In this document: piece by piece, positions 10,956 through 48,883 of the stretch
Layout of the letters: each line of letters starts with the position of its first letter
Position numbering within the stretch: the stretch's first letter is position 1
Origin: an uncultured Chloroflexia bacterium
GTDB taxonomy: Bacteria > Chloroflexota > Limnocylindria > Limnocylindrales > CSP1-4
Reading direction: 5' to 3'
Length of the DNA stretch: 64,000 nucleotides
Assembly: GCA_963813535.1 (NCBI GenBank)
Contig: CAWEZH010000002.1
Location: 992,001-1,056,000 of the forward strand
Program-made: the position numbers and the translations under genes
The notes under the pieces: generated by a model
Told to the model about the DNA's origin: nothing
The model's database searches: none
Seen by the model: only the letters and a program-made list of their open reading frames with translations

Positions 10956-10995
10956 CCGTCACCGCACCAGGGCACGAAGCTTGCCCGCGAGGCCC

Positions 10996-11346
10996 CTAGG
11001 CCTCGGCCTCGTCCTCCTCGTCGACCTCCGCGCCCGCGTCGAACAGGCCGGGTGTCCGCTCCGCGGCCCGTCCGGGCCGAGGCTCTTTGGCGCCGATCCG
11101 CCGCCGCGTCACAACGTCGACCGTTGTGTCGCCCTCGCGCGCCGGGTGTTCGACCAGCGCGATGATCCGGCTCGCCATGAATCGCCCCGTGCGGACCGGG
11201 GACCCGCCGCGGGTCACCTCGGTGACCTCGACCACGCCTCGAGCCGTCGTCACCTCGATCCGACGGCCCGCGCGACTCGCGACGATCTCGAAATTCTGCA
11301 CGGCCCCACCCGTATCGACCACGACCTCGACTCGATCGCCCTTCAT
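10996..11346 (-). CDS. hypothetical protein
   Basis: MKGDRVEVVVDTG..., RBS AGGGAGG, co-oriented within the cox accessory run. Confidence 0.75.
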   Translation of the reverse strand: MKGDRVEVVVDTGGAVQNFEIVASRAGRRIEVTTARGVVEVTEVTRGGSPVRTGRFMASRIIALVEHPAREGDTTVDVVTRRRIGAKEPRPGRAAERTPGLFDAGAEVDEEDEAEA

Positions 11347-11417
11347 GACCTCCCTTTCCGCCGGCAGGTGCCGGCCCCTACCCGGCGGTGCCGGCGCATA
11401 CGCAGCGTGACCGGCAC

Positions 11418-12572
11418 CTACCCGGCCGTGACCGGCGTGCCTTCGATCGCGACGCGCGTTCCCGCGTCGCCCAGCGTGGCCCGCTCGCGCATCGGGACCC
11501 CCGAGCCGCCATACCGCTCGGCAACGACCTCGGCAAGGATCGCCAAGGCCGTCTCGGGCGGCTGCCGTCCACCGAGATCGAGTCCTACCGGACCACGCAG
11601 GCCGGCCAGTGCCTCCTGGCTGACGCCGAGCTCGAGCAGCCGACGTCGGCGATCCGCCTGGGTCTTGCGCGAGCCGACCGCCCCGACGTACCGACACCCG
11701 CGCTTCAACGCCTCGACGATGGCCGGCTCATCGAACTTGACGTCGTGGGTCAGGACCGCGACCGCGTCGTTCGGACCCAGCCCGATCTCGTCGGCGACCT
11801 CATCGGGCCAGCCGACGACCAGCCCATCCGCATCGGGGAACCGCTCGCGCGTGGCGAACGACGCGCGGCCGTCGATGACGACCGTCTCGAAGCCGAGCTC
11901 CTTGGCCAGCCTGACGAGCGTCCGCGCGACCTCGACCGCCCCGACGATCACCAGCCGCGGCCGGACCGGGAACACTTCGACGAACAGCGACCGCCCACCG
12001 AGCTCGACGGTCCTCGACTGGCCCCGTCGCAGCGCCTCGATCGCCGCATCGACCAGCGCGCTGTCGAGACCGGCGTCGCCGAGCGAGCCCTCCAGCCGGC
12101 CGTCCTCGTGGACGACGAGCTTCGGCTCGGGCGGTGCCCCATTGCCGGGCTGATGCGGCCCGCCCGCAGCCGGCGGCGAGTCCGCGGGGAGCGGCGTGAT
12201 CACCGCGGCGCCCTGGCCGCCGGCGCCGAGGGACTCGGTCGCCGCCCGCACGGCGTCGGACGGCACGGCGGGTTCGACGAGCACGTCGATCGTGCCGCCA
12301 CAGGCCAGCCCGACATCCCACGCCTGCTCGTCGCTGATGCCATAGCGGATGACCAGGGCATTGCCGGTCTCCCGGGCGTGCTCGATCTGTTCCGCCGCCG
12401 CCCCCTCGACACAGCCGCCGCTGACCGAACCCGCGATCCGGCCGTCGGTGGCGTGCAGGAGCACCGCTCCCTCAGGCCGCGGCGCCGAACCGAAGGTGCG
12501 GACGACGACCGCGCGACCCGCGTCGACCCCCTCGCCCTGCCAGGTGGACAGTGTGTCGAGCAGTTCCTTCAT
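11418..12572 (-). CDS. xdhC: XdhC/CoxI molybdoenzyme maturation factor
   Basis: VVRTFGSAPRPEGA, GSVSGGCVEG, VGLACGGTIDV, LTHDVKFD, YVGAVGSRKT. Confidence 0.95.
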   Translation of the reverse strand: MKELLDTLSTWQGEGVDAGRAVVVRTFGSAPRPEGAVLLHATDGRIAGSVSGGCVEGAAAEQIEHARETGNALVIRYGISDEQAWDVGLACGGTIDVLVEPAVPSDAVRAATESLGAGGQGAAVITPLPADSPPAAGGPHQPGNGAPPEPKLVVHEDGRLEGSLGDAGLDSALVDAAIEALRRGQSRTVELGGRSLFVEVFPVRPRLVIVGAVEVARTLVRLAKELGFETVVIDGRASFATRERFPDADGLVVGWPDEVADEIGLGPNDAVAVLTHDVKFDEPAIVEALKRGCRYVGAVGSRKTQADRRRRLLELGVSQEALAGLRGPVGLDLGGRQPPETALAILAEVVAERYGGSGVPMRERATLGDAGTRVAIEGTPVTAG

Positions 12573-13972
12573 CGCATGGGCCTCGCGGTGGTGGGATCGG
12601 TTGGCGTGCCGCCCACCACGGTGGGAGGCGCGACGCCGGCCAGGTCGGCGACCCCGGCAAGACCGGGGAGCGCCGCGTGCGCCGCCGCTTCGGCCCCCTG
12701 GCGGGTGTCGGCCGAGCGGACGCCGCCGAGGATCTCACCGAGTCGCTCGAGCGACGCGACCGTGCCGGCCGGCAGGAAATCGTCGATATACGGGTAGGCG
12801 GCACGCATCCCGCCGGCAAGCGGCTGGTAGCCGGGCGTGCCGGCCAGCGGGTTGAGCCACACGAGCCGATGGCAGTTGCGGCGCAGGCGCGCGGTCTCGG
12901 CGGCGACCAGGCTCGGGTCGCCCCGGTCCCAGCCGTCGGACACGACGATCACCACCCCACTCGAGCGCAAAGAACGACGCGCCCAGTGCTGGTTGAACGT
13001 CCGGAAGCTCTCGCCGATACGAGTCCCGCCCGCCCAATCGTTGACGGCCTCGCTCACGCGCGTGAGCGCGCGGTCGCGGTCCTTGTCGCGGAGGAGGCGC
13101 GTGACGCGCGTCAGCCTGGTCCCGAACACGAACGACTCCGCGCGCACCTCGCTCGACGCAGACAGCGCCTGGATGAACCGCAGAAGCAGCCGGGAGTGAC
13201 GCTCCATCGACCCGGAGATATCGCACAGCACGACGAGCGACCGCGGCTCGCGGACCGGCCGGCGCCAGACCCACGACATCAGCTGGCCACCCGTCCCGAG
13301 GTTGCGCCGGAACATCGCGCGCGGCGCCAGGCGCCGCCCGTGGGAGTGGAGCTCGTAGCGCCGCGTCCGACGTTGCTCGAGCCGCGGCACGAGCTCATCG
13401 ACCAGCCGCTCGGCGTCGCGCAGCTCCGCGGGCGTCATCCGGTCGAACTCGCGGTGCTTCAGCATCTCGCCGCGCGAGTACGCGTCGGGCGCCACGACCA
13501 TGCCCTCGATGTCATCGCCGCTGTCGTCCTCGTCGGCGGTGGACGGGATCGGCACACCCCATTCGTCGGGCCGCGACGAGATGTGTTCGTCGCCGGCCGT
13601 CGGCGAGGCCTCGCCCGTGGCGTCGTCACCCTCGGTCTCGGTCCCGTCCGGGTGGCGAAGCGGCGGCGCCTGGAAGTCGCCCGGCCGCCGGCCGCGTGAT
13701 CGCCACCAGCGGTCGAACACGACGTCGTAGGTCTCGCGATCGTCGCGGCGTCGCACGAAGACCGCCTCGCCGGCGGCGCGCACCTGTTCGCGCGAACCCA
13801 TGTCGACGAGGGTCAAGGCACGCGCGTAGTCGACGGCGGCGCCGAGATCGATGTGGAGGCCGGCGGCGCGCAGCGCCCGGCCGAAGCCGACCGCTTCGTT
13901 CAGCAGGCGACGGCCGTCGACCTCCGGGCCCCACGGAGCCTTGACGACGGCGGGATCGTCATCGGCCTGCAT
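12569..13972 (-). CDS. coxE: CoxE-like VWA domain protein
   Basis: VVLCDISGSMERHSR (MIDAS), FVFGTRLTRVT, WAGGTRIG, VSDGWDRG, WLNPL. Confidence 0.93.
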   Translation of the reverse strand: MQADDDPAVVKAPWGPEVDGRRLLNEAVGFGRALRAAGLHIDLGAAVDYARALTLVDMGSREQVRAAGEAVFVRRRDDRETYDVVFDRWWRSRGRRPGDFQAPPLRHPDGTETEGDDATGEASPTAGDEHISSRPDEWGVPIPSTADEDDSGDDIEGMVVAPDAYSRGEMLKHREFDRMTPAELRDAERLVDELVPRLEQRRTRRYELHSHGRRLAPRAMFRRNLGTGGQLMSWVWRRPVREPRSLVVLCDISGSMERHSRLLLRFIQALSASSEVRAESFVFGTRLTRVTRLLRDKDRDRALTRVSEAVNDWAGGTRIGESFRTFNQHWARRSLRSSGVVIVVSDGWDRGDPSLVAAETARLRRNCHRLVWLNPLAGTPGYQPLAGGMRAAYPYIDDFLPAGTVASLERLGEILGGVRSADTRQGAEAAAHAALPGLAGVADLAGVAPPTVVGGTPTDPTTARPMR

Positions 13973-16136
13973 CCGCTGACTGTGCCACGACCGCGCCGCG
14001 ACTGCCGAACGGGCCGGGGGCCGGGGCGTGGACGACTCGATACGGGGACGTGTTCGAGATGACCTCGACGGTCCCGTCGCGGAAGAGGATCTCCATCGAC
14101 CCCCCGCCGACCCGCAGGTTGTGGATCGCGATCTCGGGCAGCCAGTCTGGTAGCTGCGGGTTCACGTACAGCTTGGAGCCATCCGCGTCGACGGTCGCGT
14201 GGAGGCCGCACAGGATCGCCACGAACCGGAACACCGAGCCCGCGGCCCATGCCTGGGGCACGTTGGCACCGAGATACGGCACCGGGAAACTGGCCGGAAC
14301 GCGCGGCAACCCCGAGAACAGCTCCGGAAGGCGAAGGCCGACCAACCGTTCGGCGGCGTCGAAGATGCCCTTGGCGACCTGCGCAGCCTCGTCGGCGTAG
14401 CCGTACCGGCGGAAGCCGCCCGCCGCTGTCGCGTTGTCGTGGGGCCAGACCGAGCCGGTGTGGTACGAGAACGGGTTGTAGGCGGGATGCTCCGTCGACA
14501 GCGTCCGGATGCCCCAGCCCGACCACATATCGTCGGCCATCAGCCGGCGAACGACGCGACCGGCGCGTTCAGGCGGGACGATGCCCGACTGGAGGAGGTG
14601 GCCGGCGTTCGACGCGACGCTCCGGATCGGCTCCTTGCGCCCGTTGAGCCCGAGGTAGTAGGTGCCTTCCTGCTCCCACCAGAAGGTGTCGTTGAACCGG
14701 TCGTACAGACGCTGGGCCGCGCGCCGCAGGCGCCGCGCATCCTTCGGGCGTTCGAGGACGTCGTAGATGTCGGCCATGCGGTTCTTCGCGTCGAAAACGT
14801 AGCCCTGGAGCTCGCAGGTGGCGATCGGCAAGGGGGCAAGGGTGCCGTCGGCTTCGGGGATGGCGTCGCCGGCGTCCTTCCAACCCTGGTTGTACATGCC
14901 GTGCGACGAGCGCGTCTTGTACTCCTGGAACCCGTCGCCGTCGCGATCGCCGAAGTGGTCGATCCAGGCCATCGCCGCCTCAGCGTTGGGCAGATAGCGG
15001 CGCAGGATCTCGGGGTCGCCGATCCAGTGATAGAGGTACGAGAGCACGATCACGAACAGGCTCGTCGCATCGTGCGTCCCGTAGTACGGCTGATATGGCA
15101 GGATCCCGAGCTGCGCCAGCTCGCCGTGGCGGATCTCGTGCGGGATCTTGCCGGGCTCCATGTCGCGTTCCGGGTCGTCGGACTTGGCCTGCAGCTCGGA
15201 CAGGCGGCGGAGCGCGCCCGACGCGAACTCGGGGAAGCCGGAGATCCCCTGCATCGACACGATCAGCGAGTCGCGCCCGAAGAGCGTCACGAACCAGGGC
15301 ACGCCGGCAGCCGGGATGAACACGCCGCGCTCGAACGAGGGGTCCTCCAGGCGCAGTGCCTCCAGGTCGCGCACGGCCTGGTCCCACGCCCGATCGACCG
15401 TCTGGTTCGGTGTCTGGACGCTCACGTTGGGGAGCGTCGGCCGGACGAGCTTGCGTAGCGGCGCGTCGACCGCGTTGCATGGCAGGGTGACGAGGCGGCG
15501 ATGCGACCGGGTGACCGGCAACCATTTCAGGCACGTATGCCAGACACCCTTCGGCGGGATGTTCGCTACGAATACCAGGCGGCCGTTGGCGAACTGGGGC
15601 GTGGAGCCGGGGCGCTCGACAGCGACGATCAGGTCGCGCCGGAAGTCGCGGTTGACGTAGGCGGTCCGGAGCTCGCCCCGCGACCTGAACCAGCGCGTGT
15701 TGATCTCGCCCCGCCGGACGATCTCGCCGCGCTTGACGTCGAAGATGTCGGCGAAGTCGGACAAGACGGCGATCTCGATCGTCAGACGGACGGGTCGGCG
15801 GGCGTAGTTGACGATGTCGATGTCCTCGTGGATCGCATCGGCGACCGTCCGGTCGACGCGCATCGCGAGCGACTGGCGGTCGATGGAGCCCGCGGAATCG
15901 ATGAGGTCGTCGTTCGTGAACTCGAACCGGGACGAGAAGGACTGGATCGGCGCCGAGGCCAGGAGGATCGGCCGGCGGCCGTTGATCCACAGGTCGTAGC
16001 CGGAGATGAACCGCGTGTCCCGGGTGAAGAACCCGTCGGCCTCGCCGAGGACCCGTCCGTCCGGCTGGCAGATCAGGACACGGTCGTCCCGGTTGATCGT
16101 GATCGTCGACGGTCCGACCTGGACCGGGAACGTCAT
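13959..16136 (-). CDS. amylo-alpha-1,6-glucosidase / glycogen debranching-like protein (GDE_N + alpha/alpha barrel)
   Basis: PAAGVPWFVTLFGRDSLI, EPGKIPHEIR.GE, YYGTHDATSLF, NQGWKDAGD, YHTGSVWPHDN, PQAWAAG. Confidence 0.93.
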   Translation of the reverse strand: MTFPVQVGPSTITINRDDRVLICQPDGRVLGEADGFFTRDTRFISGYDLWINGRRPILLASAPIQSFSSRFEFTNDDLIDSAGSIDRQSLAMRVDRTVADAIHEDIDIVNYARRPVRLTIEIAVLSDFADIFDVKRGEIVRRGEINTRWFRSRGELRTAYVNRDFRRDLIVAVERPGSTPQFANGRLVFVANIPPKGVWHTCLKWLPVTRSHRRLVTLPCNAVDAPLRKLVRPTLPNVSVQTPNQTVDRAWDQAVRDLEALRLEDPSFERGVFIPAAGVPWFVTLFGRDSLIVSMQGISGFPEFASGALRRLSELQAKSDDPERDMEPGKIPHEIRHGELAQLGILPYQPYYGTHDATSLFVIVLSYLYHWIGDPEILRRYLPNAEAAMAWIDHFGDRDGDGFQEYKTRSSHGMYNQGWKDAGDAIPEADGTLAPLPIATCELQGYVFDAKNRMADIYDVLERPKDARRLRRAAQRLYDRFNDTFWWEQEGTYYLGLNGRKEPIRSVASNAGHLLQSGIVPPERAGRVVRRLMADDMWSGWGIRTLSTEHPAYNPFSYHTGSVWPHDNATAAGGFRRYGYADEAAQVAKGIFDAAERLVGLRLPELFSGLPRVPASFPVPYLGANVPQAWAAGSVFRFVAILCGLHATVDADGSKLYVNPQLPDWLPEIAIHNLRVGGGSMEILFRDGTVEVISNTSPYRVVHAPAPGPFGSRGAVVAQSADAGR

Positions 16137-16164
16137 CGGGCGATCGATCTCAGCAGGACAGACA

Positions 16165-17095
16165 TCAGCCCCGGGCGGCGACCTCGGTCAGCATCCGGGC
16201 GGCCTGCTCGCCGCGGATCTGGCGGATGTCCTCCTCGTACTTGAGGACGACGCCCAGCGTCTCGTCGACGAGCTCGGGTTTCAGCTCGCGGGCTCCGAGC
16301 GACAGCAACGCCGCGGCCCAATCGAGCGTTTCGGCGATGCCCGGGCACCTTGGTCAGGTCGGCTTCGCGCAGCCGGTGGACGAACCCCACGACCTCGCGC
16401 GCGAGCTGTTCCGGCGCGGCGGGCACCCGCGCGAGCACGATCTCGTACTCCTTCTGGGCGGTCGGGTAGTCGATCCAGTGGTACAGGCAGCGCCGCTTGA
16501 GCGCGTCGTGGACCTCGCGCGTCCGGTTCGAGGTGAGGATGACCCGCGGTGGCTTCACCGCCTGGATCGTGCCGATCTCGGGCACCGTGACCTGGAAGTC
16601 GGACAGGATCTCGAGGAGATACGCCTCGAACTCCTCGTCCGCCCGGTCGATCTCGTCGATGAGCAGCACCGGGGCGACCCCATCGTCGCTCTCGAGCGCC
16701 TGGAGCAGTGGTCGGCGGATGAGGAAGTCGGGCCCGAAGATGTCCTGGGCGCTGGCCCGCTCGGCCTCGCCGCGCGCCTCGAGCAACCGGATCTCGAGCA
16801 TCTGGCGCGGGTAATTCCACTCGTACACCGCGGTGTTGACGTCGAGGCCCTCGTAGCACTGCAGCCGGATCAGGCGCGCGCCGAGCGACGCGGCGAGGAC
16901 CTTGGCGAGCTCGGTCTTGCCGACGCCAGCCTCGCCCTCCAGCAGGAGCGGACGGCCGAGCTCGAGCGCCAGGAAGACGGCCGTCCCGAGCGAGCGGTCC
17001 GCGATGTAGTCGCGCGAGCGGAAATCCTCGGTCAGGGCATCGATGGAGCGGGTGCCGGGCGGTCGGTCGTCGCGGTCCGCCGGTTGGTCGGTCAT
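16165..17095 (-). CDS. coxD: CoxD-like MoxR AAA+ ATPase with one +1 frameshift near 16340
   Basis: LLEGEAGVGKTELAK, RLQCYEGLD, LLIDEIDRADEEFEA. After DLTKVPG an extra base shifts the frame; the other frame continues IAETLDWAAALL...LGVVLKYEEDI to a stop at 16165. Confidence 0.9.
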
Positions 17096-17147
17096 CGGCT
17101 CGGATGCTACACGGACCGACCCGGAGACGGTGCGCGCGGTGCGGCCC

Positions 17148-18998
17148 TCAGGCTGGCGGTCGCGACCCGCGCACCCGATCGTGCAGGCCGTCGATCGAGG
17201 CGAGCGTGCCCTCCACCTCGGCCTTACGGGCACGGCGCTCGGCCGTTTCGCGCTTGGCGGCGCGGTCCAGGGCGGCCGCGCTGGCCGCGACGGTCCGGTG
17301 CAGCTCGACGATCCGGTCCATGAACCGCGCCCGCATCTGGCGCTGCATCTCGTCGATCACGGAGGCCAGCCGCCCATCGACCTGGAAGCGGATCTCCTCG
17401 ATCAGGTCGGCCAGGAACGTGCGTGCCTGCTGGCGACGATCGGTCAACCGGCGGCGTCGCTCGTCGAGCACCTCCTTGCCGCCGTACACCGCTGCCACGC
17501 CGAGCACCGCCGGACCCACGATCGCCGCGCCCAGCAGCGTCCCGACGAGACCCAGCAGCTCGACGCCCGCCTTGGCACCCGTCACGAGGCCGTACCCCGA
17601 TCCGAGTCGGGCTCGTGTGCGGCTCTCGAACTCCGGGTCGTTCGTCCAGAACTCCCCGACGTCGAACGTGATCGCCGGCACGTCGTCCTGCGGCCCGCGT
17701 TCCTCGTCGGCCAACAGCGCGGCGATGGTGGCCTGGACGTCGGCGGCGCCGGTGGCGGCGTTCCGGAACGCACCGCGGACGGATGTGGCGATCAGGTCCT
17801 GGACCCGGGCGCTGAGATCCGGCCAGATGGCGGCAGGGTCGGTGGCCTCGATCTCCCCCTGGGCATCGCGCAGGATCGACCGCATGTCGCGCTGGAACTC
17901 GAACGCGATCCGAGTGCGGAGGGCGCCGAACTCGTCGTCGAGGCGCGCCGACCATGCCGCGTCGACCCGCCGCAGGTCGGCGAGGCGCTGGCGCGAGGCC
18001 TCCAGCTCCTCCGACATCCGGCTCGCTGCGGCCGGGTCCGCCAGCGCAGCACGTTCGGCGATCAGCGGCTCGCGGAGCTGGCCGAGCACCCAGCGCAGCT
18101 CACCGGCGGCCGACTCAAGGGTGGCCGTCCGGGCGCGCTCGACGACATCGCCGCGAAGCGCCTCGGCAAAGGCGCCGTAGCCGCTCTCGTCATCGATCTC
18201 GTCGGATCGCATCTTGAGCGTCGAGCTGAGCCCGAACGGCCGTTCCATGAGCCCGATCGCGGCGAGATGGCCGGCGTCGAGCTCGAGGATGCGGCGCCAG
18301 CCTGGGTACATGTCGATCTTGGTAAGCGCCACGAGCACGGGCGGGCCGGCGGTGCGGGCACTTGCCAGGAACTCGAGCTCCGCGGCGGACAACTCGGCGG
18401 ATGCGTCGGTCACGAACACCAGCGCGTCGGCAGATGGGAGGAAGGCCAACGTCGCCGCGGCATGACCGGCGTTGAGTCCCCCGACCCCGGGTGTGTCCAC
18501 GAGCGTCAGGCCGCTTGCGAGCACGGGTTCGGGCAGCCGGACCTCGACGAGCTCGACGTCGCTTCGTCGTTCCCGACCCGGGACCTCCTGCGCCCATTCC
18601 GCGATCGCGGCGGGATCGATCGACTCGACAACCCGCTCGTCGCCATCGCGCCGGTGAACCTCGGCGCTCGCCGGGTCGCCGTAGCGGACGACCGTGACGG
18701 CGCTCGTTGCAAGATCGTCGTCGACGGGGCACGCGACCCTCCCCAACAGGGCGTTGATCAACGCGCTCTTGCCGTTCTTGAACTCACCGACCACGCAGAC
18801 GACGGTCTCGGTCCTGGCCGCGCGCCGCCGGATCTCCTCGATCCGGTCGGCAAGGTCGGCACGATCCAGGCGCTCGGCGAGGAGCCGGATGTCGCGCGCA
18901 GCCTCGTCCATGGCCCCAGGCGCATCGACCACCTCGTCGGTCGAGCCGGGCGCGTCGATCGGGCGCGTGGCCGGCGCCATCGTCATCGTCGCGGACAT
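17148..18998 (-). CDS. bacterial dynamin-like GTPase (IniA-type)
   Basis: G1 GEFKNGKS, G3 LVDTPGVGG, G4 TKID, membrane hairpin LLGLVGTLLGAAIVGPAVLGVAAVYGG; RBS AGGAGGGAGG. Confidence 0.92.
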   Translation of the reverse strand: MSATMTMAPATRPIDAPGSTDEVVDAPGAMDEAARDIRLLAERLDRADLADRIEEIRRRAARTETVVCVVGEFKNGKSALINALLGRVACPVDDDLATSAVTVVRYGDPASAEVHRRDGDERVVESIDPAAIAEWAQEVPGRERRSDVELVEVRLPEPVLASGLTLVDTPGVGGLNAGHAAATLAFLPSADALVFVTDASAELSAAELEFLASARTAGPPVLVALTKIDMYPGWRRILELDAGHLAAIGLMERPFGLSSTLKMRSDEIDDESGYGAFAEALRGDVVERARTATLESAAGELRWVLGQLREPLIAERAALADPAAASRMSEELEASRQRLADLRRVDAAWSARLDDEFGALRTRIAFEFQRDMRSILRDAQGEIEATDPAAIWPDLSARVQDLIATSVRGAFRNAATGAADVQATIAALLADEERGPQDDVPAITFDVGEFWTNDPEFESRTRARLGSGYGLVTGAKAGVELLGLVGTLLGAAIVGPAVLGVAAVYGGKEVLDERRRRLTDRRQQARTFLADLIEEIRFQVDGRLASVIDEMQRQMRARFMDRIVELHRTVAASAAALDRAAKRETAERRARKAEVEGTLASIDGLHDRVRGSRPPA

Positions 18999-19097
18999 CT
19001 CTGGCGGCGTCCTCCCTCCTCCGGCCCGCGAGTGTAGCGTCCGACACGCGTCGCGCACGGTAGACTCGGGAACCCTGCCAACTGATCGAGGGGACTG

Positions 19098-20980
19098 ATG
19101 GCCTACTCCCTGGGGATCGACCTCGGGACGACGTACTCCGCGGCTGCGACCGCGCGCGGCGATCGACTCGAGATCTTCCAGCTCGGTGAACGCGCGGCGA
19201 CGATCCCGTCGATGGTTCTGCTCCGGGCCGACGGCGAGGTCCTGACGGGTGAGGCCGCCGAGCGCCGAGCGCTCGCCGAACCGACCCGCACCGGGCGCGA
19301 GTTCAAGCGCCGCCTGGGCGACCCGACCCCGATCATCCTGGGCGGCACCCCGTACGGCGCCGAAGCCCTGCTGGCCCACCTGCTCCGCGCGATCGTCGAG
19401 CGGGTGACGCAAGAGCTCGGTGAGCCGCCGTCGTCGATCACGCTGTGCCATCCCGCCGCGTACGGGGCATACAAGCTCGACCTGCTCCAGCAGGCCGTTC
19501 GCCAGGCCGACATCGGCCCGGTCACGCTGCTGACGGAGCCCGAGGCTGCCGCGCTCGACTACGCGCGCCAGGAGCGCGTGCCGTCGGGCACGGTCATCGC
19601 CATCTACGACTTCGGCGGTGGCACGTTCGACGCGACGATCCTGCGCAAGACCGACGACGGCTTCGAGCCGCTCGGTCAGCCCGAGGGCCTCGAGCGCCTC
19701 GGTGGCATCGACTTCGACGAGGCGCTGTTCCGCCGCGCGATGGAGCACGTCGCCAGCCAGGGCGTGACCGTCGACGCCAACGAGCCGGCGACGATGGCCG
19801 CGATCGCCCGGCTGCGTGACGAATGCCGTCGCGCCAAGGAAGCACTGTCGTCCGACACCGACGCGACCATCGCGATCTTCCTGCCGGGATTCCAGAGCGA
19901 GATGCGCCTCACGCGCTCGGAGTTCGAGGACATGATCCGGCCGCGCATCCACGAGACGATCGCGGCGCTCGGTCGGGCGACGCGGAGCGCCGGGCTCGAA
20001 TCCGGGGACATCGATCGCGTCCTGCTGGTCGGCGGCAGCTCGCGCATCCCGCTCGTCGCCGAGATGGTCCGCGACGCGACCGGTCGACCGGTGGCGGTCG
20101 ATGCGCATCCGAAGCACACGATGGCGCTCGGGGCGGCGTACGTGGCGGAGCAGCAACGAGTCGCGACGGCGGGGGCCGGGGCCGCGAGCGCGGCCGGGGT
20201 GGTCGCGGCCGGAGCGGCGGCGGCAAGTGCGGCGAGTGCCGCGGCCGACGCCGGGATCGGGACGCCGTCGCCGGTCCTCCCGGACGAGGTCGAGCCCGCG
20301 GCTGCTGCAGCGGCCGCCTCGGGGGTGGCTGCGGCGTCAGCCGCCGATCTTGGCGAGCCCGAGTCCGTGCTCGAACCGAGTCCGACGACGACAGGCGCGC
20401 CTCCTCCTCTTCCGGCGACGATCGCTCGAGGCGCATGCTGCCGGTCGGTCTCGCCCTCCTCGGCGCGCTGGTCGTCGGGGCAGTCGCGATCGGGGCGAAC
20501 CTCATGGGCGGTGGTGGCGGCGGAGCGGCGACCGCATCGCCCTCGGCGTCGCTGGCCGTCGTCCCGTCCGCGTCGCCGTCGCCGTCTGTTGCAAGCCCGT
20601 CGCCCAGCCCGGTCGTGACGCCGACCGCGGTCCCCTCCCCGACCGCCGTCCCACCGTCGGCCACACCGGCCGGCCGACAGGCACGGATCACCGGCATCAC
20701 GATCAGCGGCGGACGCTACGTCGTCGACTACGACGTCTTCAACTTCACCCCGGAACTGCCCGGCGGCCGGCACGTGCACTTCTTCTACGACACCGTCACC
20801 CCCGCGAACGCCGGCGTCCCCGGCAAGGGTCCGTGGTTCCTCTACGCGGGACCGGTGCCGTTCAAGGAGTACAAGGTCAGCGAGCGGCCGAGCGGCGCAC
20901 GGCAGATCTGCGTCCTCGTCGCCCGGGCGGACCATTCGGTCGTCCAGGACACCGGCAACTGCGTCGACATCCCGTCCTGA
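19098..20980 (+). CDS. membrane-anchored Hsp70-family protein (ATPase domain + TM + S/P/T linker + small extracytoplasmic domain); frameshift near 20378
   Basis: LGIDLGTTYS, IYDFGGGTFDAT, LGGIDFD, LLVGGSSRIP. Restoring one C in GAACC|GAG joins it to RRMLPVGLALLGALVVGAVAIGANL...HVHFFYDT...ICVLVARADHSVVQDTGNCVDIPS. Confidence 0.88.
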
Positions 20981-20994
20981 CGCGGATCATCGCG

Positions 20995-22463
20995 ATGAGC
21001 GATCTGGCGACGGATGTCCGGGCGATCGCCGATCTCGCTCGGCAGGCGGCCGCTGGCACCGGCTACGTCGCGGCGATCGACACGGTCACGCGCCGACTCG
21101 ACGAGCCCTTGCGCGTCGCGATCGCCGGTCGGGTGAAGGCCGGCAAGTCGACGCTGCTCAACGCCCTGGTCGGCGAGCGGCTGGCGGCGACGGACGCCGG
21201 CGAGTGCACCAAGATCGTGACGTGGTACCGGCACGGCCTCGGGTACCGCGTGAGCGCCGACCTGCGTCCGGAGGGTCGCGCGGACCTCCCATTCCGGCGC
21301 GAGGACGGCGAGCTGGCGATCGACCTTGGCGAGCACGGCGTCGAGGGCATCGAGCGAATCGAGGTCGGCTGGCCGTCGGCCAAGCTCAAATCGATGACGC
21401 TGATCGACACCCCGGGTCTCGGGTCGGCGAACGAGGGCACGTCGGCGCGCACGATGGCGTCGCTGCTCGACACCGGCGTCGAGGGACCGGCTGACGCCGA
21501 CGCCGTGCTCTACCTGATGCGCCACCTGCATCACGGCGACGCCCGCTTCCTCGAGGCGTTCATGGACCACTCGATCGCGCATGCGTCGCCTGTCAACGCG
21601 GTCGTCGTCCTGTCGCGGGCCGACGAGATCGGTGCGGCCCGGCCGGACGCGCTCGATTCGGCGCACGCGATCGCGGCCCGGTACGCGTCGGACCCACGCG
21701 TCCGCGAGCTGGCCTCGGGCGTGCTGCCGGTCGCCGGACTCCTCGCCGAGACCGGCGCGACGCTCCGCCAGGAGCAGTTCGAATGGATCCGCCAGGTGGC
21801 TGGCCTGGATGCGGAGGTCCGCGATCGACTGCTCGTTTCGGTCGAACGCTTCCGCGACGACGGCGAGAACCCGCTGAGCGAGGCGATCCGCGAAGACCTT
21901 CTGGAGCGCCTTGGGTTGTACGGGTTGCGGCTGGCGACCCAGCTCGTGGCCGACGGCTCCGTGCGCACGGCTCCGGAGCTCTCGACCGCGCTGCTCGAGC
22001 ATTCCGGGATCCGGGCGCTGCAGCGCGTGCTCGAGCAGTCGTACTCGGCGCGCGCGTCATTGCTGAAGGCAAGGTCGGCGTTGGTCGCACTGCGGGCGAT
22101 CGCGATCGTCCTGGGTCGGGACGGCGTGGCGGAAGCCGGTCAGGTGGTCGAGGCGATCGACCGGCTCGAGGCGTCGTCGGGTGCGCTGGCGCTGCTTCGG
22201 CTGCAGCACCTCGTGCTGGCGGGTCACCTGGAATTGAGCGATCGGAGCGCGCGGAGGTGGACCGGCTGTGCAACCCGGGCGATCCGCGTGTTCGGGCAGG
22301 GCTGGACAGCGACGCGACGGACGACGACGTGCGTGCGGCGGCTCTGGCCGGCGTCGAGCGCTGGCGGGCTCGTGCCGGCAACCCGTTGAGCGACCGCCGC
22401 CTGATCGAGGCGGCCGAGATCGTCAGCCGCGCCTATGAAGGGATCTACGCAGGCGCCGGCTGA
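20995..22463 (+). CDS. bacterial dynamin-like GTPase (IniC-type); frameshift near 22245
   Basis: LDEPLRVAIAGRVKAGKSTLLNALVGE, LIDTPG, ADAVLYLMRHLH, LSRADEIGA; the C-terminus ERWRARAGNPL..EIVSRAYEGI lies in the shifted frame. Confidence 0.9.
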
Positions 22464-26199: not shown

Positions 26200-27243
26200 C
26201 TACCCTTCCGGCGCGTCCAGGTCGCGCGCATACCGAGGAAATCGGAAACGCTGGTCGCGCGTCAGGATCCCGCCGTGGCCGAGCTTCGCCACTGTCGCCT
26301 CCGACGCTGGCTCGCCGGCCAGCAACCTGGGCAGCAACAGATCCGCCGCCGTCGCCTTCGAGTAGGCGCCGCACGTCGGCAACCCCAGGATCGACGTTCC
26401 ACCGACCCGTGCCAGCCACAGCATCGAGCCGGGATGCGACGGCACGCCTCGCCGCACGACGCGCCCACCGAGCGCCTCGATGGCGATGAAGAACGCGTCC
26501 TCGGGGTCGGTCGAAGCCGACCCGGCCGTCAACACCAGGTCGGCCGTCTCGGCTCCCCGGGTGAAGCGCCCGACCGCGGTCTCCACGGCATCGGCATCGT
26601 CCTCGACGTAGACGATATCGAGGATCTCCGAGCCGAGACCCTCGACCTTGGCGCGCACCGATGCCTCGAAGCGCTCCTTCGCCGTCGCCCGGACGGACTC
26701 CTTCACGACGACGCCGACGCGCCGAGCGACGAACGGCGCGACCGAGACGATCGGCTGGCTGCCGAAACCCGCGATCCGCGCACCCGCCTCGATCACCCCG
26801 GCATCGACGAGGTGCGGCGCGACCTTCACGCTCGCGACGAGGTCGCCGCGCTCGACGACCTGGCCGTCGTAGACCGTGAACACCTCGAGCGGGTCGAGCC
26901 GGTTGATCCGTTCGAGATCGGCGATCCGCACGGTCACGACGCCGTCGACCGCCGCGACCAGGTCGAGCCGGCTCTGGTTCGGGCCGCGGACATCGAGCCC
27001 GCTCCCGGCGATCGCCTTGGCCAGCCGAAGTGCGGCCTCGTCCTCGTGCAGCTCGTTGCCGCTCGCGACCAGCACGCTCACGGGCGGGCCCGGCTCCTCG
27101 GCGGCCAGCGCGAGGAGGTCCTCTTCCGACAACCGTCGGCCCTTCGACCAACGCTTGCCGCCGACCGTGAGGTCGCGCGTCAGGACCGCGCCGGCCAGCC
27201 GGGCGGGGGCGCGCCGGCCCGGGACGACCCGCTCGACGCGCAA
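26200..27243 (-). CDS. molybdopterin-binding (MoeA-C/MoCF_BD-like) protein
   Basis: LHEDEAALRLA, LTAGSASTDPED, GVPSHPGSMLWLA, ILGLPTCG, DLLLPRLLAGE, LGHGG. Confidence 0.85.
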   Translation of the reverse strand: MRVERVVPGRRAPARLAGAVLTRDLTVGGKRWSKGRRLSEEDLLALAAEEPGPPVSVLVASGNELHEDEAALRLAKAIAGSGLDVRGPNQSRLDLVAAVDGVVTVRIADLERINRLDPLEVFTVYDGQVVERGDLVASVKVAPHLVDAGVIEAGARIAGFGSQPIVSVAPFVARRVGVVVKESVRATAKERFEASVRAKVEGLGSEILDIVYVEDDADAVETAVGRFTRGAETADLVLTAGSASTDPEDAFFIAIEALGGRVVRRGVPSHPGSMLWLARVGGTSILGLPTCGAYSKATAADLLLPRLLAGEPASEATVAKLGHGGILTRDQRFRFPRYARDLDAPEG

Positions 27244-27268
27244 CGCTCAGACGCTGGGATCGAGCGCG

Positions 27269-28111
27269 CTAACGACCGAGGGCGGCGTCGATCGCCCGGC
27301 GCGTGTACACCTCGGCCATCTTGGATCGATAGTCCCGGTCGGCATAGAAGTCACCGTTGACGGTCTGGCCCTCGGTCACGTGAGCGGCCGCCGCCGCGAC
27401 CGCGCTCGGCGAGCCGTCGCCGCCCATCAGCGCGGATTCGACGGCCTTGGCCCGGTATGGCGCCTCCCCCACCCCGGTGATGGCGATACGGGCGTGCGAC
27501 ACGCTCCCGCCGCTCATCGCCACGACCGCGCCGACCCCGACGATCGCGTAGCCCGAAGCCGGATTCGCCATCTTCTTGTACGACCCGGCCGCACCCTCGG
27601 GGAGCGGACCCCGGATGATCCTGACGAGGATCTCATCGGGCCGGATCGCCGTCTCGAAGGCGCCGGTGAAGAAGCCGTCGAGGGGCACGGTCCGCTCACC
27701 GCTCGACGAGCGGAGCACCGTCGAATAGTCCAGGGCGAGTGCCAGCGCTGGTGCATCGCTGGCGGGATCAGCGTGACTGATCGACCCGCCGATCGTCCCG
27801 CGGTTGCGGACCTGGACGTCGCCGATCTGGGAGAGGCATTCCTGGGCGATCGGCAGCTTCGCGACTTCGAGGACCTCGGCGTACGTCGCCAGCGCGCCGA
27901 CTTCGAAGCCGCCATCCGCCGTGGGGCCGACCCGCTTCAGCTCGTCGATCCCGCCGATGTCGACCAGCTTCGTCGGTCGTGCCAGCCGCAGCTTCATCAG
28001 CGGCAGCAGGCTCATCCCACCGGCGATGATCTTGGCCTCACCGCCCGCCAGCGCCCCGAGCGCGTCCTCGATCGAGCTCGCCCGCTGGTAGTCGAACGCT
28101 GCCGGGATCAT
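27269..28111 (-). CDS. coxM: xanthine dehydrogenase-family / form II CODH FAD-binding subunit (CoxM-like)
   Basis: MIPAAFDYQRA, AGGMSLLPLMKLRLA, IGDVQVRNRGTIGGSISHADPASD. Confidence 0.92.
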   Translation of the reverse strand: MIPAAFDYQRASSIEDALGALAGGEAKIIAGGMSLLPLMKLRLARPTKLVDIGGIDELKRVGPTADGGFEVGALATYAEVLEVAKLPIAQECLSQIGDVQVRNRGTIGGSISHADPASDAPALALALDYSTVLRSSSGERTVPLDGFFTGAFETAIRPDEILVRIIRGPLPEGAAGSYKKMANPASGYAIVGVGAVVAMSGGSVSHARIAITGVGEAPYRAKAVESALMGGDGSPSAVAAAAAHVTEGQTVNGDFYADRDYRSKMAEVYTRRAIDAALGR

Positions 28112-30531
28112 GCCTGGCCTCCCTTCGCCGACTGGATGGCTTGCCAGACCTTCTGTGGCGTGTACGGCATGTCGAGGTGCCGGATGCCGTGTGCGCCGAG
28201 CGCGTCGATCACGGCGTTGGCCACTGCGGCCGTGGATGCGATCGCGCCCGCTTCACCGACGCCCTTCACCCCGAGCGGGTTGACCGGCGAGGGGGTAACC
28301 GTCTTGTCGAGCTCGAAGTTCGGCAGTCGCGAGGCCTTGGGCAGCGCGTAGTCCATCATCGAGCCGGTCAGCAGCTGGCCGTCGTCGTTGTAGACCGCGC
28401 CCTCCCACAGCGCCTGGCCGACACCCTGGGCGATACCGCCGTGCAGCTGGCCGGCCACGATCAACGGGTTGATCTCGTTGCCAACGTCGTCGACCGCGAC
28501 GTAGCGCACGAGGTCGACCACACCGGTCTCCTCGTCGATCTCGACCGTCGCGATATGGGTGCCGAACGGCCACGTGCAGTTCGGCGTGTCGTAATAGGCC
28601 GTCTCGTCGAGATACGGCTCCATGCCCTCGGGAGCATCGAACGCCAGGTCGATGGCGAACGCGATCTCCTGGATCGTCTTCTTGCGGTCCGGCGAGCCCT
28701 TCACGCGGTATTCGGCACCGTCGATCTCGATGTCGTCGGGGGACGCCTCGAGCATGTGGGCGGCATAGCGCCGCGCCTTGTCACGGATCTTGTCCGTCGC
28801 CTTGATGGCGGCGGTCATCCCAACGGAGCTCGTCCGAGATCCGTAGGTCCCGTAGCCGAACGGCGTGCCCTGCGTGTCCGAGTGCTGGACGATGATGTCC
28901 TCCATCGGCACGCCGAGCTGGTCCGAGATGACCTGTGCGTACGTCGTCTCGTGGCCCTGGCCCTGTGGCTGGGTGCCCACGGTCGCGACGACCTTGCCGG
29001 TCAGGTGGACCTTGATGTTGGCCGACTCCCACATGGCCGCGCCCCAACCCTCGCCGACGGCACCGATCCACTTCGACGGGGCGACACCGCACACCTCGAT
29101 GTACGTGCTGAAGCCGACGCCGAGCAACTTGCCGCGGTCGCGCGCATCCGCCTTCTGGGCTGCGAGCGCCGGGTAGTCGACCATGGCCAGCGCCTTGTCC
29201 ATCGCCGGCTCGTAGTTGCCCGAGTCGATATAGATCTTGGCCCCGCCACTGGCGGTCCCGAGCCCCGACGGGTTGTCGTACGGGAACTGGTCGGGCTGGA
29301 TGAAGTTGCGCCGGCGGAGCTCGACGCGGTCCATGCCGATCTCGGCCGCGAAGAGGTCCATCGCCCGCTCGATGACATAGGTCGCCTCGGGACGACCGGC
29401 GCCGCGATAGGCGTCGACGAAGGTCGTGTTCGTGTAGACCCCAGTCACCTCGGCGTAGACGTTCGGGATCTTGTAGCAGCCGCTCAGGACGCGGGCGTAC
29501 AGCGTGGTCGGGATGCCCGGGCCGATGGTCGACAGCCGGCCGCCGAGGTTGGCATACGTCTTGACCCGCAGACCGGTGACCTCGCCGTCACGCTTGCCGG
29601 CGATCTCCAGGTACGTGATGTGGTCGCGACCGTGGATGGTCGACTGGTAGTTCTCGCGGCGGCCTTCGATCCACTTCACGGGCCGCCCGCCGATGGCCTT
29701 GCTCGCGAACATGCACAACGCCATGTCGGCGTAGGTGTAGATGCGCGAACCGAATGCGCCGCCGATATCTGGAGCGATGCAGCGGACCTTGTGCTCGGGG
29801 ATGCCGGTCACGAAGGCGGTCAGCAGCAGCCGCTGGATGTGCGGCGTCTGGCTCGACATCCAGACCGTGTATTCGTCGGTGCCGGGGTTGTACCAGCCGA
29901 TGTCGCCGCGGGTCTCGATCGAGTTCGGGATCAGACGCTGGTTGATGATCCGCTGCTTGACGACGACTTCCGCGCCATCGATCGCGGCGTCGGTGCCGGC
30001 CTTGTCGCCGACGTTCCATTCGAAGACGACATTCTTCGGTGCGTTCTCGTGGAGCTGTGGGGCTCCGGCTTCCATCGCCTTCTCGGCGTCGACCACGGCC
30101 GGCAGCGGCTCCCAGTCGACCTGGATGGCCTCCAGGGCGTCGACCGCCTGCTCCGGCGTGTCGGCGACCACCGCGGCCACGCCTTCGCCGGTCCACTTGA
30201 CGTCGTCCGTCGCCAGAACGCGCGGGGTGTTGACGTTGTTCTGGATGCCCGCGCTGCCACCGGCCGGCCACGCCATCGGCAGTGGGTTGTACGGGATGTC
30301 GGCACCGACGAACACGGCGTGGACGCCGGGCATCGTCTTGGCGGCGCTCGTGTCGATCGAGCGGATGTTGGCGTGCGCATACGGACTGCGCAGGATGGCC
30401 AGGTAGGTCATCGACTGCAGCTTGATGTCGTCGATGTAGCGGCCCTTGCCGGTGATGAACCGCGGGTCCTCGGTGCGTTTGATCGGCTGGCCGAGCGGCG
30501 TGGTCTTCGGGGCGTCGAGTACGTCGGTCAT
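28108..30531 (-). CDS. coxL: form II CoxL-like molybdopterin-binding subunit
   Basis: IKRTEDPRFITGKG, active-site loop DAYRGAGRPEA (form II), QGQGHETT, GVKGVGEAG. Confidence 0.93.
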   Translation of the reverse strand: MTDVLDAPKTTPLGQPIKRTEDPRFITGKGRYIDDIKLQSMTYLAILRSPYAHANIRSIDTSAAKTMPGVHAVFVGADIPYNPLPMAWPAGGSAGIQNNVNTPRVLATDDVKWTGEGVAAVVADTPEQAVDALEAIQVDWEPLPAVVDAEKAMEAGAPQLHENAPKNVVFEWNVGDKAGTDAAIDGAEVVVKQRIINQRLIPNSIETRGDIGWYNPGTDEYTVWMSSQTPHIQRLLLTAFVTGIPEHKVRCIAPDIGGAFGSRIYTYADMALCMFASKAIGGRPVKWIEGRRENYQSTIHGRDHITYLEIAGKRDGEVTGLRVKTYANLGGRLSTIGPGIPTTLYARVLSGCYKIPNVYAEVTGVYTNTTFVDAYRGAGRPEATYVIERAMDLFAAEIGMDRVELRRRNFIQPDQFPYDNPSGLGTASGGAKIYIDSGNYEPAMDKALAMVDYPALAAQKADARDRGKLLGVGFSTYIEVCGVAPSKWIGAVGEGWGAAMWESANIKVHLTGKVVATVGTQPQGQGHETTYAQVISDQLGVPMEDIIVQHSDTQGTPFGYGTYGSRTSSVGMTAAIKATDKIRDKARRYAAHMLEASPDDIEIDGAEYRVKGSPDRKKTIQEIAFAIDLAFDAPEGMEPYLDETAYYDTPNCTWPFGTHIATVEIDEETGVVDLVRYVAVDDVGNEINPLIVAGQLHGGIAQGVGQALWEGAVYNDDGQLLTGSMMDYALPKASRLPNFELDKTVTPSPVNPLGVKGVGEAGAIASTAAVANAVIDALGAHGIRHLDMPYTPQKVWQAIQSAKGGQA

Positions 30532-30547
30532 CGTTCCTCTCCCCGGA

Positions 30548-31042
<495 letters not shown>

Positions 31043-31195
31043 GGGCCGGACCTCCTTCGACGACGACTGTGACGCGGACTCGGGGTTCGCGACAGGGTCA
31101 GGATGCATGTGTCCGCTGGAGCAGAGGACCTCGCCCCGGCTGGCTCCTCGTGCCGGTGGGAGGGACTGCGATGGTCCCACCGTCGAGGGTCGGAA

Positions 31196-48850: not shown

Positions 48851-48883
48851 GGCGTCGAGTCTACGGAAGCGATCGATGGCTCA

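Follow-up and report, generated by a model that had tools for sequence, protein, structure and literature searches.

The stretch of DNA analysed here (64,000 nucleotides, hereafter the window, from contig CAWEZH010000002.1 of an uncultured Chloroflexia bacterium, positions 992,001 to 1,056,000) carries at 17148-22463 a trio of genes that encode two dynamin-family GTPases, Dyn1 and Dyn2, and an Hsp70-like protein. Dynamin pairs are already known; what is new is an undescribed third component, an Hsp70-type ATPase. We think it fairly probable that the trio is a membrane-remodelling module in which this membrane-anchored ATPase acts as an adaptor or switch for an IniA/IniC-like dynamin pair.

Layout of the locus

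Because the G+C content of the region is ~71%, long spurious open reading frames (ORFs) abound, and the genes of the window were told from them by protein-family matches. Dyn1, an IniA-like bacterial dynamin-like protein (BDLP) of 616 aa, lies on the minus strand at 17148-18998 and was recognised with Pfam Dynamin_N and the IniA structure 6j72. It is divergent from the Hsp70-like gene, which starts 99 bp away at 19098, and the control region between them (18999-19097) holds two copies of the element GTA(G/C)ACTCG, which emerged from an alignment of 43 intergenic regions. The Hsp70-like protein, on the plus strand, opens with an Hsp70-type nucleotide-binding domain (NBD) of ~355 aa at 19098-20162 and continues with an Ala/Pro-rich low-complexity linker (20163-20434), to which the mapping of a close homologue assigns a frameshift site, a single transmembrane helix (20435-20491; hydropathy 2.49 in that homologue), an extracytoplasmic stalk, Gly-rich and then Pro/Ser/Thr/Ala-rich (20492-20674), and a C-terminal ectodomain of ~100 aa (20675-20980), predicted by AlphaFold2 to be an all-beta sandwich and followed by the stop codon. 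Dyn2, a shorter, soluble dynamin-family GTPase of ~489 aa if intact, occupies 20995-22463 on the plus strand and starts 14 bp past the stop codon of the Hsp70-like gene. The initial annotation of this DNA had described an IniA-type dynamin divergent, across 99 bp, from an Hsp70 gene and a second dynamin gene, and all of these features are present in the sequence.

Reading frames and integrity of the genes

Full frames for the Hsp70-like protein and Dyn2 exist in the window only across single-base frameshifts. The Hsp70 frame as given continues to 20618, with the transmembrane helix and ectodomain in another frame. When we mapped a homologue that is a single ORF of 626 aa and 97% identical to the window (P0002), its residues 1-437 fell on 19098-20408 in frame 3 and residues 438-626 on 20411-20977 in frame 2, which places the change between 20408 and 20411, within the CCTCCTCCTC run, a CCT repeat, where one base is missing at 20409-20410 relative to homologues; this break had been flagged in the initial annotation. 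A Dyn2 homologue of 489 aa and 95% identity (P0271) similarly maps with residues 1-416 on 20995-22242 and residues 414-489 on 22233-22460 in another frame, so that the Dyn2 frame changes within 22233-22242, a break not flagged in the initial annotation. The adjoining MoxR gene also changes frame, at ~16338-16340.

These breaks bear on the possibility that the trio has no joint function, either because the genes of the window are decaying pseudogenes or because an ordinary chaperone-like gene lies by chance beside the dynamins or serves in CO-dehydrogenase maturation. Frameshifts in two of the three trio genes and in the adjoining MoxR gene would fit decay. Each break, however, is a matter of one base, with no stop codons and no other decay, and the homologues that are 95-97% identical are single ORFs of 626, 625 and 489 aa. 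Most of the best 120 Hsp70 homologues have lengths of 580-700 aa, and the fused architecture is complete in all 8 that were inspected. Since intact single-ORF homologues exist, the fusion is genuine in the family and the breaks of the window are most likely single-base assembly errors, as the similar split matches found in the same genes at several related loci, on long contigs, would also fit. The same homologues speak against the transmembrane helix and ectodomain forming a separate gene (ATG at ~20435), an alternative raised when the locus was first annotated. Three of four genes in a row carry a single-base frameshift, and breaks of this kind may exist elsewhere in the window. We treat the absence of any joint function as highly improbable, and return below to its other two versions.

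An Hsp70-type ATPase domain on a membrane anchor

The Hsp70-like protein matches Pfam HSP70 at E = 2.4e-53, across the NBD positions of the profile only, and its NBD aligns with residues 3-346 of Geobacillus DnaK (2v7y). Like canonical DnaK, it has a full actin-fold ATPase domain with conserved catalytic residues: D8, K70, E147, D171, G173-175 and T176 are invariant in 29 NBD sequences (D8, K70, E147, D171 and T176 being assigned to DnaK residue numbers on the correspondence that we take to hold). The domain is nearer to Hsp70 than to the FtsA/MreB type (E = 2.4e-53 versus 2.8e-8).

The likeness to DnaK ends with the NBD. Matches to the Pfam and NCBIfam Hsp70 models reach no further than profile position ~372 of 599 and ~369 of 625, respectively, and neither these libraries nor the sequence after the NBD reveal a substrate-binding domain or lid; the interdomain linker and adjacent co-chaperones of DnaK are missing as well. 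Instead, the protein is membrane-anchored at its C-terminal side and carries an ectodomain: the NBD is followed by the Ala-rich linker, the transmembrane helix MLPVGLALLGALVVGAVAI, which starts at 20435 with a basic RSRR just before it, the P/S/T stalk and the C-terminal domain with RHVHFF and two Cys. In all seven Hsp70-type representatives of the ectodomain family, one hydrophobic segment separates NBD and ectodomain. Residues 58-85 of the NBD form a family-specific segment that stands where DnaK has its own sequence, and this replacement makes up the predicted dynamin-binding face described below. This architecture, ATPase motifs without a substrate-binding domain and then linker, transmembrane helix, stalk and ectodomain, had been proposed at the outset and is seen in the sequence, and fused in homologues. 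The initial observation that dnaJ and grpE are not adjacent was likewise borne out, as Pfam found neither DnaJ nor GrpE among the main flanking ORFs of the window or of five other loci. A protein without a substrate-binding domain is unlikely to run an ordinary chaperone cycle, which counts against an ordinary chaperone-like gene standing beside the dynamins by chance.

The ATPase domain is the most constrained part of the protein. Among 28 full-length fusions, mean pairwise identity is 0.73 for the NBD, 0.19 for the linker, 0.34 for the transmembrane helix, 0.32 for the stalk and 0.59 for the ectodomain, and the variable length of the linker gives fused proteins of 571-901 aa.

Two dynamins and a predicted contact with the ATPase domain

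Dyn1 carries the motifs GEFKNGKS, DTPG and TKID in its translation, has the G1-G4 elements of a dynamin-type G domain, and matches Pfam Dynamin_N at E = 9.2e-24. The IniA-type assignment first given to it holds over the full length of the protein: residues 39-597 align with residues 13-580 of Mycobacterium smegmatis IniA (6j72) at E = 1.3e-65, so that the helical neck and trunk after the G domain are alignable with a solved BDLP. Its hydrophobic peak (2.18, residues 481-499) lies inside a longer G/A/V/L-rich segment, and we predict a membrane hairpin or paddle near residues 470-505. Dyn1 is unbroken in the window, its residues 1-616 aligning at 94% with the protein of a related locus (L001).

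Dyn2 carries GRVKAGKS, DTPG and SRAD, matches Dynamin_N at E = 7.6e-11, and has no hydrophobic segment of transmembrane grade (maximum 1.65). Its best fold matches are IniA, mitofusins and BDLP, all weak (E = 1.8e-3, template-modelling (TM) score 0.28). Its best blastp matches are genes annotated as GTPases in Gordonia and Rhodococcus, and over 286 residues it shares 44% identity with the gene after an iniA-like gene in Nocardia farcinica. Dyn2 thus belongs with the shorter, second GTPase found in actinobacterial pairs.

A link between the ATPase and the pair is suggested by complex prediction, run with alignments for both chains. NBD residues 1-360 and Dyn2 gave an ipSAE of 0.77 (0.80, 0.77 and 0.77 in the three runs), and the best of three controls gave 0.00; in the calibration of the tool, which applies only roughly here, where our own alignments were used, the mark was reached by 116 of 157 solved complexes and by 2 of 215 mismatched pairs. 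At least 95% of contacts are common to the runs, with a partner predicted local distance difference test (pLDDT) score of at least 77. Modelling the Hsp70 NBD with each dynamin had been suggested as a check of the initial idea, and a contact with Dyn2 is what the models support.

In the predicted interface, NBD residues 58-85, 121-126 and 193-240 face Dyn2 residues 371-396 and 451-486. Its core on the NBD side, residues 72-85 (RLGDPTPIILGGTP), is invariant or nearly so, and the Dyn2 segment 451-486 contains R458, R468 and the near-invariant W457, P464, D467, E472, R479, Y481 and E482, in a tail of the form ERWR...NPL...RAYE. Many interface residues are thus among the most conserved of both families, and the models predict that the Hsp70 ATPase domain contacts conserved C-terminal helices of Dyn2. 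This predicted-binding tail is the stretch that lies past the Dyn2 frameshift of the window.

Conservation of the trio in Chloroflexota

A profile of the ectodomain alone (A1), scanned over one genome per species, returned 71 loci, 70 of which carry the label Chloroflexota, the remaining one being a 4.5-kb contig with the label Binatia. By tblastn with the window proteins, an Hsp70 NBD lies upstream of the ectodomain in 44 of the 71. The co-occurrence of the three genes, named at the outset as the thing to examine, is nearly complete in these loci: both dynamins are present in 42 of the 44, and the other two (L005 and L034) hit contig ends, stopping at or just before the Hsp70 gene, with the Dyn1 site outside the contig. 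The order Dyn1(-)/Hsp70-Dyn2(+) is kept in 40 loci. Two Anaerolineaceae loci (L041 and L045) have Dyn2-Dyn1(-)/Hsp70(+), with dyn2 following dyn1 on the minus strand with a 4-base overlap and both divergent from the Hsp70 gene. Identity of the NBD is 75-97% in most loci and falls below this only in frameshift-fragmented or Anaerolineaceae loci.

Some 25 loci keep the trio between coxD/E/F-like and coxMLS genes, with CoxM 47-91% identical, so that the initial description of a module inserted in the cox region gives way to an old synteny of the lineage. Other loci have unrelated flanks, for example two-component systems, Usp or HtrA, and because the flanks differ among loci we regard the trio itself as the conserved unit. 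The position between cox genes is what would favour a part in CO-dehydrogenase maturation, the remaining version of the trio without a joint function. Many loci, and other phyla, however, have the trio with no cox genes beside it, and given these quite different flanks we considered and rejected a functional link to CO dehydrogenase.

The high conservation of sequence and synteny in Limnocylindria-like genomes would also suit a housekeeping role in division, septation or envelope growth, in which the pair stabilises or finishes septal membranes as Streptomyces DynA/DynB do, and the tethered actin-fold ATPase is an FtsA-like anchor tied to the wall. The NBD is of Hsp70 type, however, and not of FtsA or MreB type, and the annotated ORFs on either side of the trio, in the window and in five other loci, include no gene for division or wall synthesis. 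We judge this role improbable; both it and the absence of a joint function are less likely than the membrane-remodelling module or the defence system discussed below.

The divergent control region

The two GTA(G/C)ACTCG copies in the 99-bp gap, at 19029-19037 (minus strand, one mismatch) and 19060-19068 (plus strand), face one gene each. Across the 71 loci (1,041,672 bases), 45 exact occurrences lie within 320 bp upstream of hsp70 and 4 elsewhere. Both orientations, with at most one mismatch, are present in 36 of 43 loci, and the copy that faces hsp70 stands 34-44 nt before the start codon in most of them. The spacing of the two copies varies from overlapping to ~95 bp, and in four loci the overlap is a perfect palindrome.

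The copies may be the -10 boxes (TAGACT, TACACT) of two divergent promoters under strong constraint, and such boxes would imply co-expression of the flanking genes. We also considered the inverted motif as the operator of a regulator and set this aside, since the variable spacing, the fixed distance of the plus copy and the presence of other copies near start codons fit a -10 box better.

The window holds three exact copies of the element against 0.68 expected. The two outside the trio, at 48856-48864 and 59940-59948 (both minus strand), lie 5-6 nt upstream of an ATG, before a nucleoside-hydrolase-like and an aldehyde-dehydrogenase-like gene (named by eye), and look like -10 boxes of leaderless transcripts.

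Related clusters outside Chloroflexota

An ESM Atlas search with the whole Hsp70-like protein found Hsp70 clusters labelled Actinomycetota only, which served as the lead for a plasmid search. We searched a plasmid collection with Dyn1, a query blind to the Hsp70, and obtained 17 records, of which 14 were examined, leaving aside the unannotated Rhodococcus plasmid records H8, H15 and H16. An NBD-only Hsp70 gene is in the cluster at 11 of the 14: eight annotated Gordonia/Rhodococcus plasmids, R. opacus VOC-14, Nonomuraea and Anabaena. In blastp, the counterpart of Dyn1 is the first dynamin of these clusters and that of Dyn2 is the second GTPase (e.g., 1.3e-56 in Anabaena and 1.7e-29 in Gordonia). 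The Lichenicola and Lysinibacillus records have no Hsp70 with the dynamins.

All eight annotated Gordonia/Rhodococcus plasmids list a 'dynamin family protein', a 'GTPase' and an 'Hsp70 family protein' in a row; in record H10 the dynamin gene itself is unlisted in the annotation, and an unannotated R. opacus plasmid has the same arrangement by tblastn. The Hsp70s of Gordonia KTR9, R. qingshengii (two) and R. opacus S8 consist of NBD, linker, one transmembrane helix and an unrelated outer domain of ~130-180 aa. That Actinomycetota carry such copies on plasmids suggests an accessory role and speaks further against a housekeeping function. In Nonomuraea gerenzanensis, whose record is chromosome-sized, Dyn2 and Dyn1 are accompanied by a protein in which the Hsp70 NBD is joined to a CD225 domain with two transmembrane segments (E = 3.1e-21; L085, 8666-10054). 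CD225, the interferon-induced transmembrane protein family, is linked to membrane fusion control in animals. Plasmid pANA01 of Anabaena sp. 90 encodes, on one strand, a 409-aa NBD-only Hsp70 with no transmembrane helix and two DO-GTPases (2.7e-15 and 2.7e-4) along with the dynamins.

The recurring theme is a dynamin pair together with a usually membrane-anchored Hsp70 ATPase domain whose outer domain is exchangeable. Because the related clusters carry a different ectodomain, a CD225 anchor with two transmembrane segments or no anchor, the Chloroflexota ectodomain is not a core part of the system. The idea of a joint system put forward in the initial annotation is supported, as the three genes are conserved as a unit that reaches well beyond the phylum.

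Several smaller features accompany these clusters. In Gordonia and Rhodococcus (L072, L073, L075, L076, L082-L084) there is a tendency for a divergent gene upstream and an annotated C39 family peptidase nearby; at R. opacus S8 (L075), the sole such locus with a Pfam run, these are genes for a DUF7373 lipoprotein, divergent, and a C39_2-type peptidase. The annotated ORFs around the trio in the window and in loci L009, L010, L012, L041 and L045 include no C39-like peptidase. R. qingshengii and R. erythropolis have two tandem Hsp70-transmembrane genes, and a small transmembrane protein is encoded between the dynamins. The pANA01 cluster (L080, 834-12495) reads HTH, NBD-only Hsp70, unknown, two DO-GTPases, unknown paralogue, C39-like peptidase, unknown and two dynamins, with a CHAT-domain gene upstream; its Hsp70, one DO-GTPase and the two paralogous unknowns have the same C-terminal (D/N/E)WF tail, which might point to a common docking partner.

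The ectodomain family

The ectodomain was modelled by AlphaFold2 at a pLDDT of 94.5 as an all-beta fold. It has no family match in Pfam, NCBIfam or PADLOC, and a Foldseek search against the PDB found nothing at E up to 0.001. Two candidate relatives were rejected: a SKICH domain, the best PDB fold match, is not significant (E = 0.031, TM score 0.56), and DUF4399, a weak ESM Atlas lead (score 0.83), matches none of the 34 members of alignment A2 at E up to 10.

Against 1.84 billion representatives, the ectodomain profile found 636 clusters at E up to 0.001, 466 of them at E up to 1e-10. The best 150 representatives carry 1-5 copies each, arranged in tandem where there are several, the last copy ending at most 12 residues from the C-terminus in 137. 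Pfam was run on 88 of these 150, chosen among the longer ones, and some carry two listed domains: Pkinase was found in 29, HSP70 in 7, FGE-sulfatase in 4, Beta_helix, PD40 and DUF11 in 3 each, TIR in 2, and FHA, CHAT and Subtilase in 1 each, while 33 had no named domain. A complete cytoplasmic-type N-terminal domain is present in 33 proteins (22 kinases, 7 Hsp70, 1 FHA, 2 TIR and 1 CHAT, with seven truncated kinases excluded), and all 33 have one hydrophobic segment between that domain and the first ectodomain copy. Receptor-type Ser/Thr kinases are the commonest carriers, and the ectodomain is also found at the ends of secreted enzymes. It is thus an unnamed extracytoplasmic module of Chloroflexota, usually in the 'sensor' position of single-pass receptors. 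One kinase (L067) carries three copies.

His33, His35, His87, Cys79 and Cys96 are invariant in the ectodomain, which suggests a metal site and a disulfide. The variability of the domain was also of interest from the start; at a mean pairwise identity of 0.59 it is not hypervariable. That it senses an external cue is a conjecture.

Comparison with known dynamin systems and a possible role in defence

Among the nearest known relatives of the pair are the mycobacterial IniA and IniC, encoded by iniBAC. IniA is reported to mediate membrane fission, and both IniA and IniC are reported to be needed for vesicle release. The trio likewise has an IniA-like Dyn1 and a second, shorter dynamin-family GTPase of ~490 aa, whose possible likeness to IniC was judged indirectly, through the gene after the iniA-like gene of N. 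farcinica and the GTPase genes of Gordonia and Rhodococcus. It differs in that no iniB-like gene is seen at the trio, in that the dynamins are divergent and not tandem in most Chloroflexota loci, and in having an obligate membrane-anchored NBD-only Hsp70 neighbour, which the IniA/IniC literature that we found does not report. Campylobacter DLP1/DLP2, Streptomyces DynA/DynB, Nostoc BDLP and Escherichia coli LeoA/LeoBC are likewise paralogous GTPases encoded together, one membrane-bound and one soluble, and the fold matches of Dyn2 fall in the same group. In sequence, the trio resembles these heterotypic pairs in the G domain only (E = 3e-12 to 2e-5), and it adds a third conserved component, an Hsp70-type ATPase predicted to bind the soluble partner. 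The full-text literature that we found describes no Hsp70-like partner of bacterial dynamins; subscription papers and supplements may hold more.

What comes nearest to one is the description of GTPase-centred conflict systems by Kaur et al. (2020, PMC7159879), among whose components the text lists HSP70 and HSP70 without the peptide-binding domain; the word 'dynamin' is absent from its main text. These DO-GTPase/GAP1-N2 systems are built on a GTPase family different from that of Dyn1 and Dyn2, although both GTPase kinds occur in one cluster in pANA01. Neither Dyn1 nor Dyn2 matches DO-GTPase1 or DO-GTPase2 (PF19975, PF19993) at E up to 0.01, and the same library does find these models in pANA01. 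Pfam likewise found no GrpE, DnaJ-FNIII or tubulin among the main flanking ORFs of the trio. No GAP1 family is listed near it, although whether the Pfam library holds GAP1 models was not checked; there is also no ORF room for one beside the trio, where the gaps measure 99 and 14 bp and the neighbours are MoxR and a PNPOx-like gene.

These likenesses bear on a reading of the trio as an anti-phage or conflict system, Eleos-like or DynA-like, in which infection or damage to the envelope would be sensed by the ectodomain or the Hsp70, and the dynamins would respond by sealing or sacrificing the membrane. Bacillus subtilis DynA is reported to act in phage defence. The genomic context of the relatives agrees with a defence role: the actinobacterial versions are on mobilizable plasmids, the R. 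opacus cluster has a RES/Xre toxin-antitoxin pair and an HNH gene in its vicinity, the Anabaena version lies among DO-GTPases and adjoins a CHAT protein, components of a kind that Kaur et al. class as conflict systems, and the Chloroflexota ectodomain is also found on TIR and CHAT proteins. PADLOC, which had been proposed as a check of the anti-phage idea, matched Dyn1 to LeoBC (1.2e-17, 62 bits) and LeoA (4.2e-17) and Dyn2 to LeoA (3.6e-12), weak scores of 62 bits and lower that stand at the level of general dynamin homology, and it had no match for the Hsp70-like protein. With weak LeoA/LeoBC matches only and none for the Hsp70, defence stays a rival and not a result. In ~25 loci whose genomes have diverged the trio keeps its position in the cox cluster, which is unlike a mobile island; the NBD is 75-97% identical across most loci, and the ectodomain is not hypervariable. 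We hold defence, the main rival, to be rather unlikely as the function of the trio, while noting that it overlaps with the membrane-remodelling module, since membrane repair can itself be defence.

A proposed membrane-remodelling module and how it may work

In the membrane-remodelling module that we favour, Dyn1 would sit in the cytoplasmic membrane via its hydrophobic hairpin, and Dyn2 would be its soluble partner. The Hsp70-like protein would be bitopic, with a cytoplasmic ATPase, a flexible linker, one transmembrane helix, the P/S/T stalk and an outer beta-sandwich. By docking the C-terminal helices of Dyn2, its NBD could bring Dyn2 to the membrane beside Dyn1, and ATP binding and hydrolysis, by opening and closing the NBD lobes, could gate the binding and release of Dyn2; the Hsp70-like ATPase would thus be a membrane-anchored adaptor or switch and not a folding chaperone. 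The dynamin pair would then drive membrane fission, sealing or vesicle release with GTP, as for IniA/IniC, and envelope repair is also possible, while the Chloroflexota ectodomain would connect the machine with the cell envelope or with a cue from it. What the analysis shows is the gene content, the domain architecture, the linkage of the trio in two gene orders in Chloroflexota and in others elsewhere, the promoter-like elements common to both sides of the gap and a contact predicted under controls. We infer the ATP gating, the pairing of Dyn1 and Dyn2, the membrane output and the role of the ectodomain, and likewise whether the trio serves repair, vesiculation or defence.

Several points weigh against this module. 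The contact between NBD and Dyn2 is a matter of model confidence, the prediction covers this single pair, and the model of Dyn2 itself is of middling confidence (pLDDT 74). Solved complexes exist of Hsp70 NBDs with helical exchange factors, and the score may therefore partly reflect likeness to these. Two of the three trio genes are frameshifted in the window, and if the Dyn2 break were real it would remove the predicted binding helices. The Chloroflexota sample was drawn with the ectodomain, so that it gives the probability of the dynamins given this Hsp70 only. In Anabaena, the Hsp70 gene is beside the DO-GTPase genes and several genes away from the dynamins, and its product may serve that system. 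In N. farcinica (L079, 6809-12373), the iniA-like/iniC-like pair is directly followed by a canonical DnaK, and an NBD-like transmembrane protein is encoded ~3.4 kb upstream on the other strand; this dnaK may be a remnant of an Hsp70-dynamin linkage or a coincidence with it.

A broader version of the module, which we put forward tentatively as possible, is that IniA/IniC-type machines of Terrabacteria (Chloroflexota, Actinomycetota and Cyanobacteriota) widely have a third subunit that has been overlooked, a membrane-anchored NBD-only Hsp70. The lobes of its ATPase domain would together bind the soluble dynamin by the C-terminal helices and use ATP to load this dynamin onto the membrane-bound one or to release it from there, with interchangeable outer domains (beta-sandwich, actinobacterial or CD225) tuning where or when the machine fires. 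If this is true, it would be a bacterial counterpart of the coupling of Hsc70 to dynamin-driven membrane scission in eukaryotes.

How bacterial dynamin pairs are recruited and switched is largely open, including for the Ini proteins linked to mycobacterial drug tolerance and vesicle release. If the module works as proposed, it would provide a new regulatory principle for bacterial membrane remodelling and a non-chaperone use of the Hsp70 ATPase fold, with a concrete, testable interface. The analysis also defines an unnamed extracytoplasmic beta-sandwich domain that is widespread in Chloroflexota and, of the outer domains met here on receptor-type Ser/Thr kinases, the most frequent. Although assembled genomes are the sole source for the organism of the window, experiments are possible because the module is on plasmids of culturable Rhodococcus and Gordonia strains.

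Neighbouring genes in the window

The trio and a few other genes split a cluster of aerobic CO-dehydrogenase type, whose two parts lie at 9477-17356 and 26200-31195. One side encodes MobA-like, XdhC/CoxI and VWA_CoxE proteins, a glycogen-debranching-like glycoside hydrolase and the MoxR AAA protein, and the other side encodes CoxM-, CoxL- and CoxS-like proteins.

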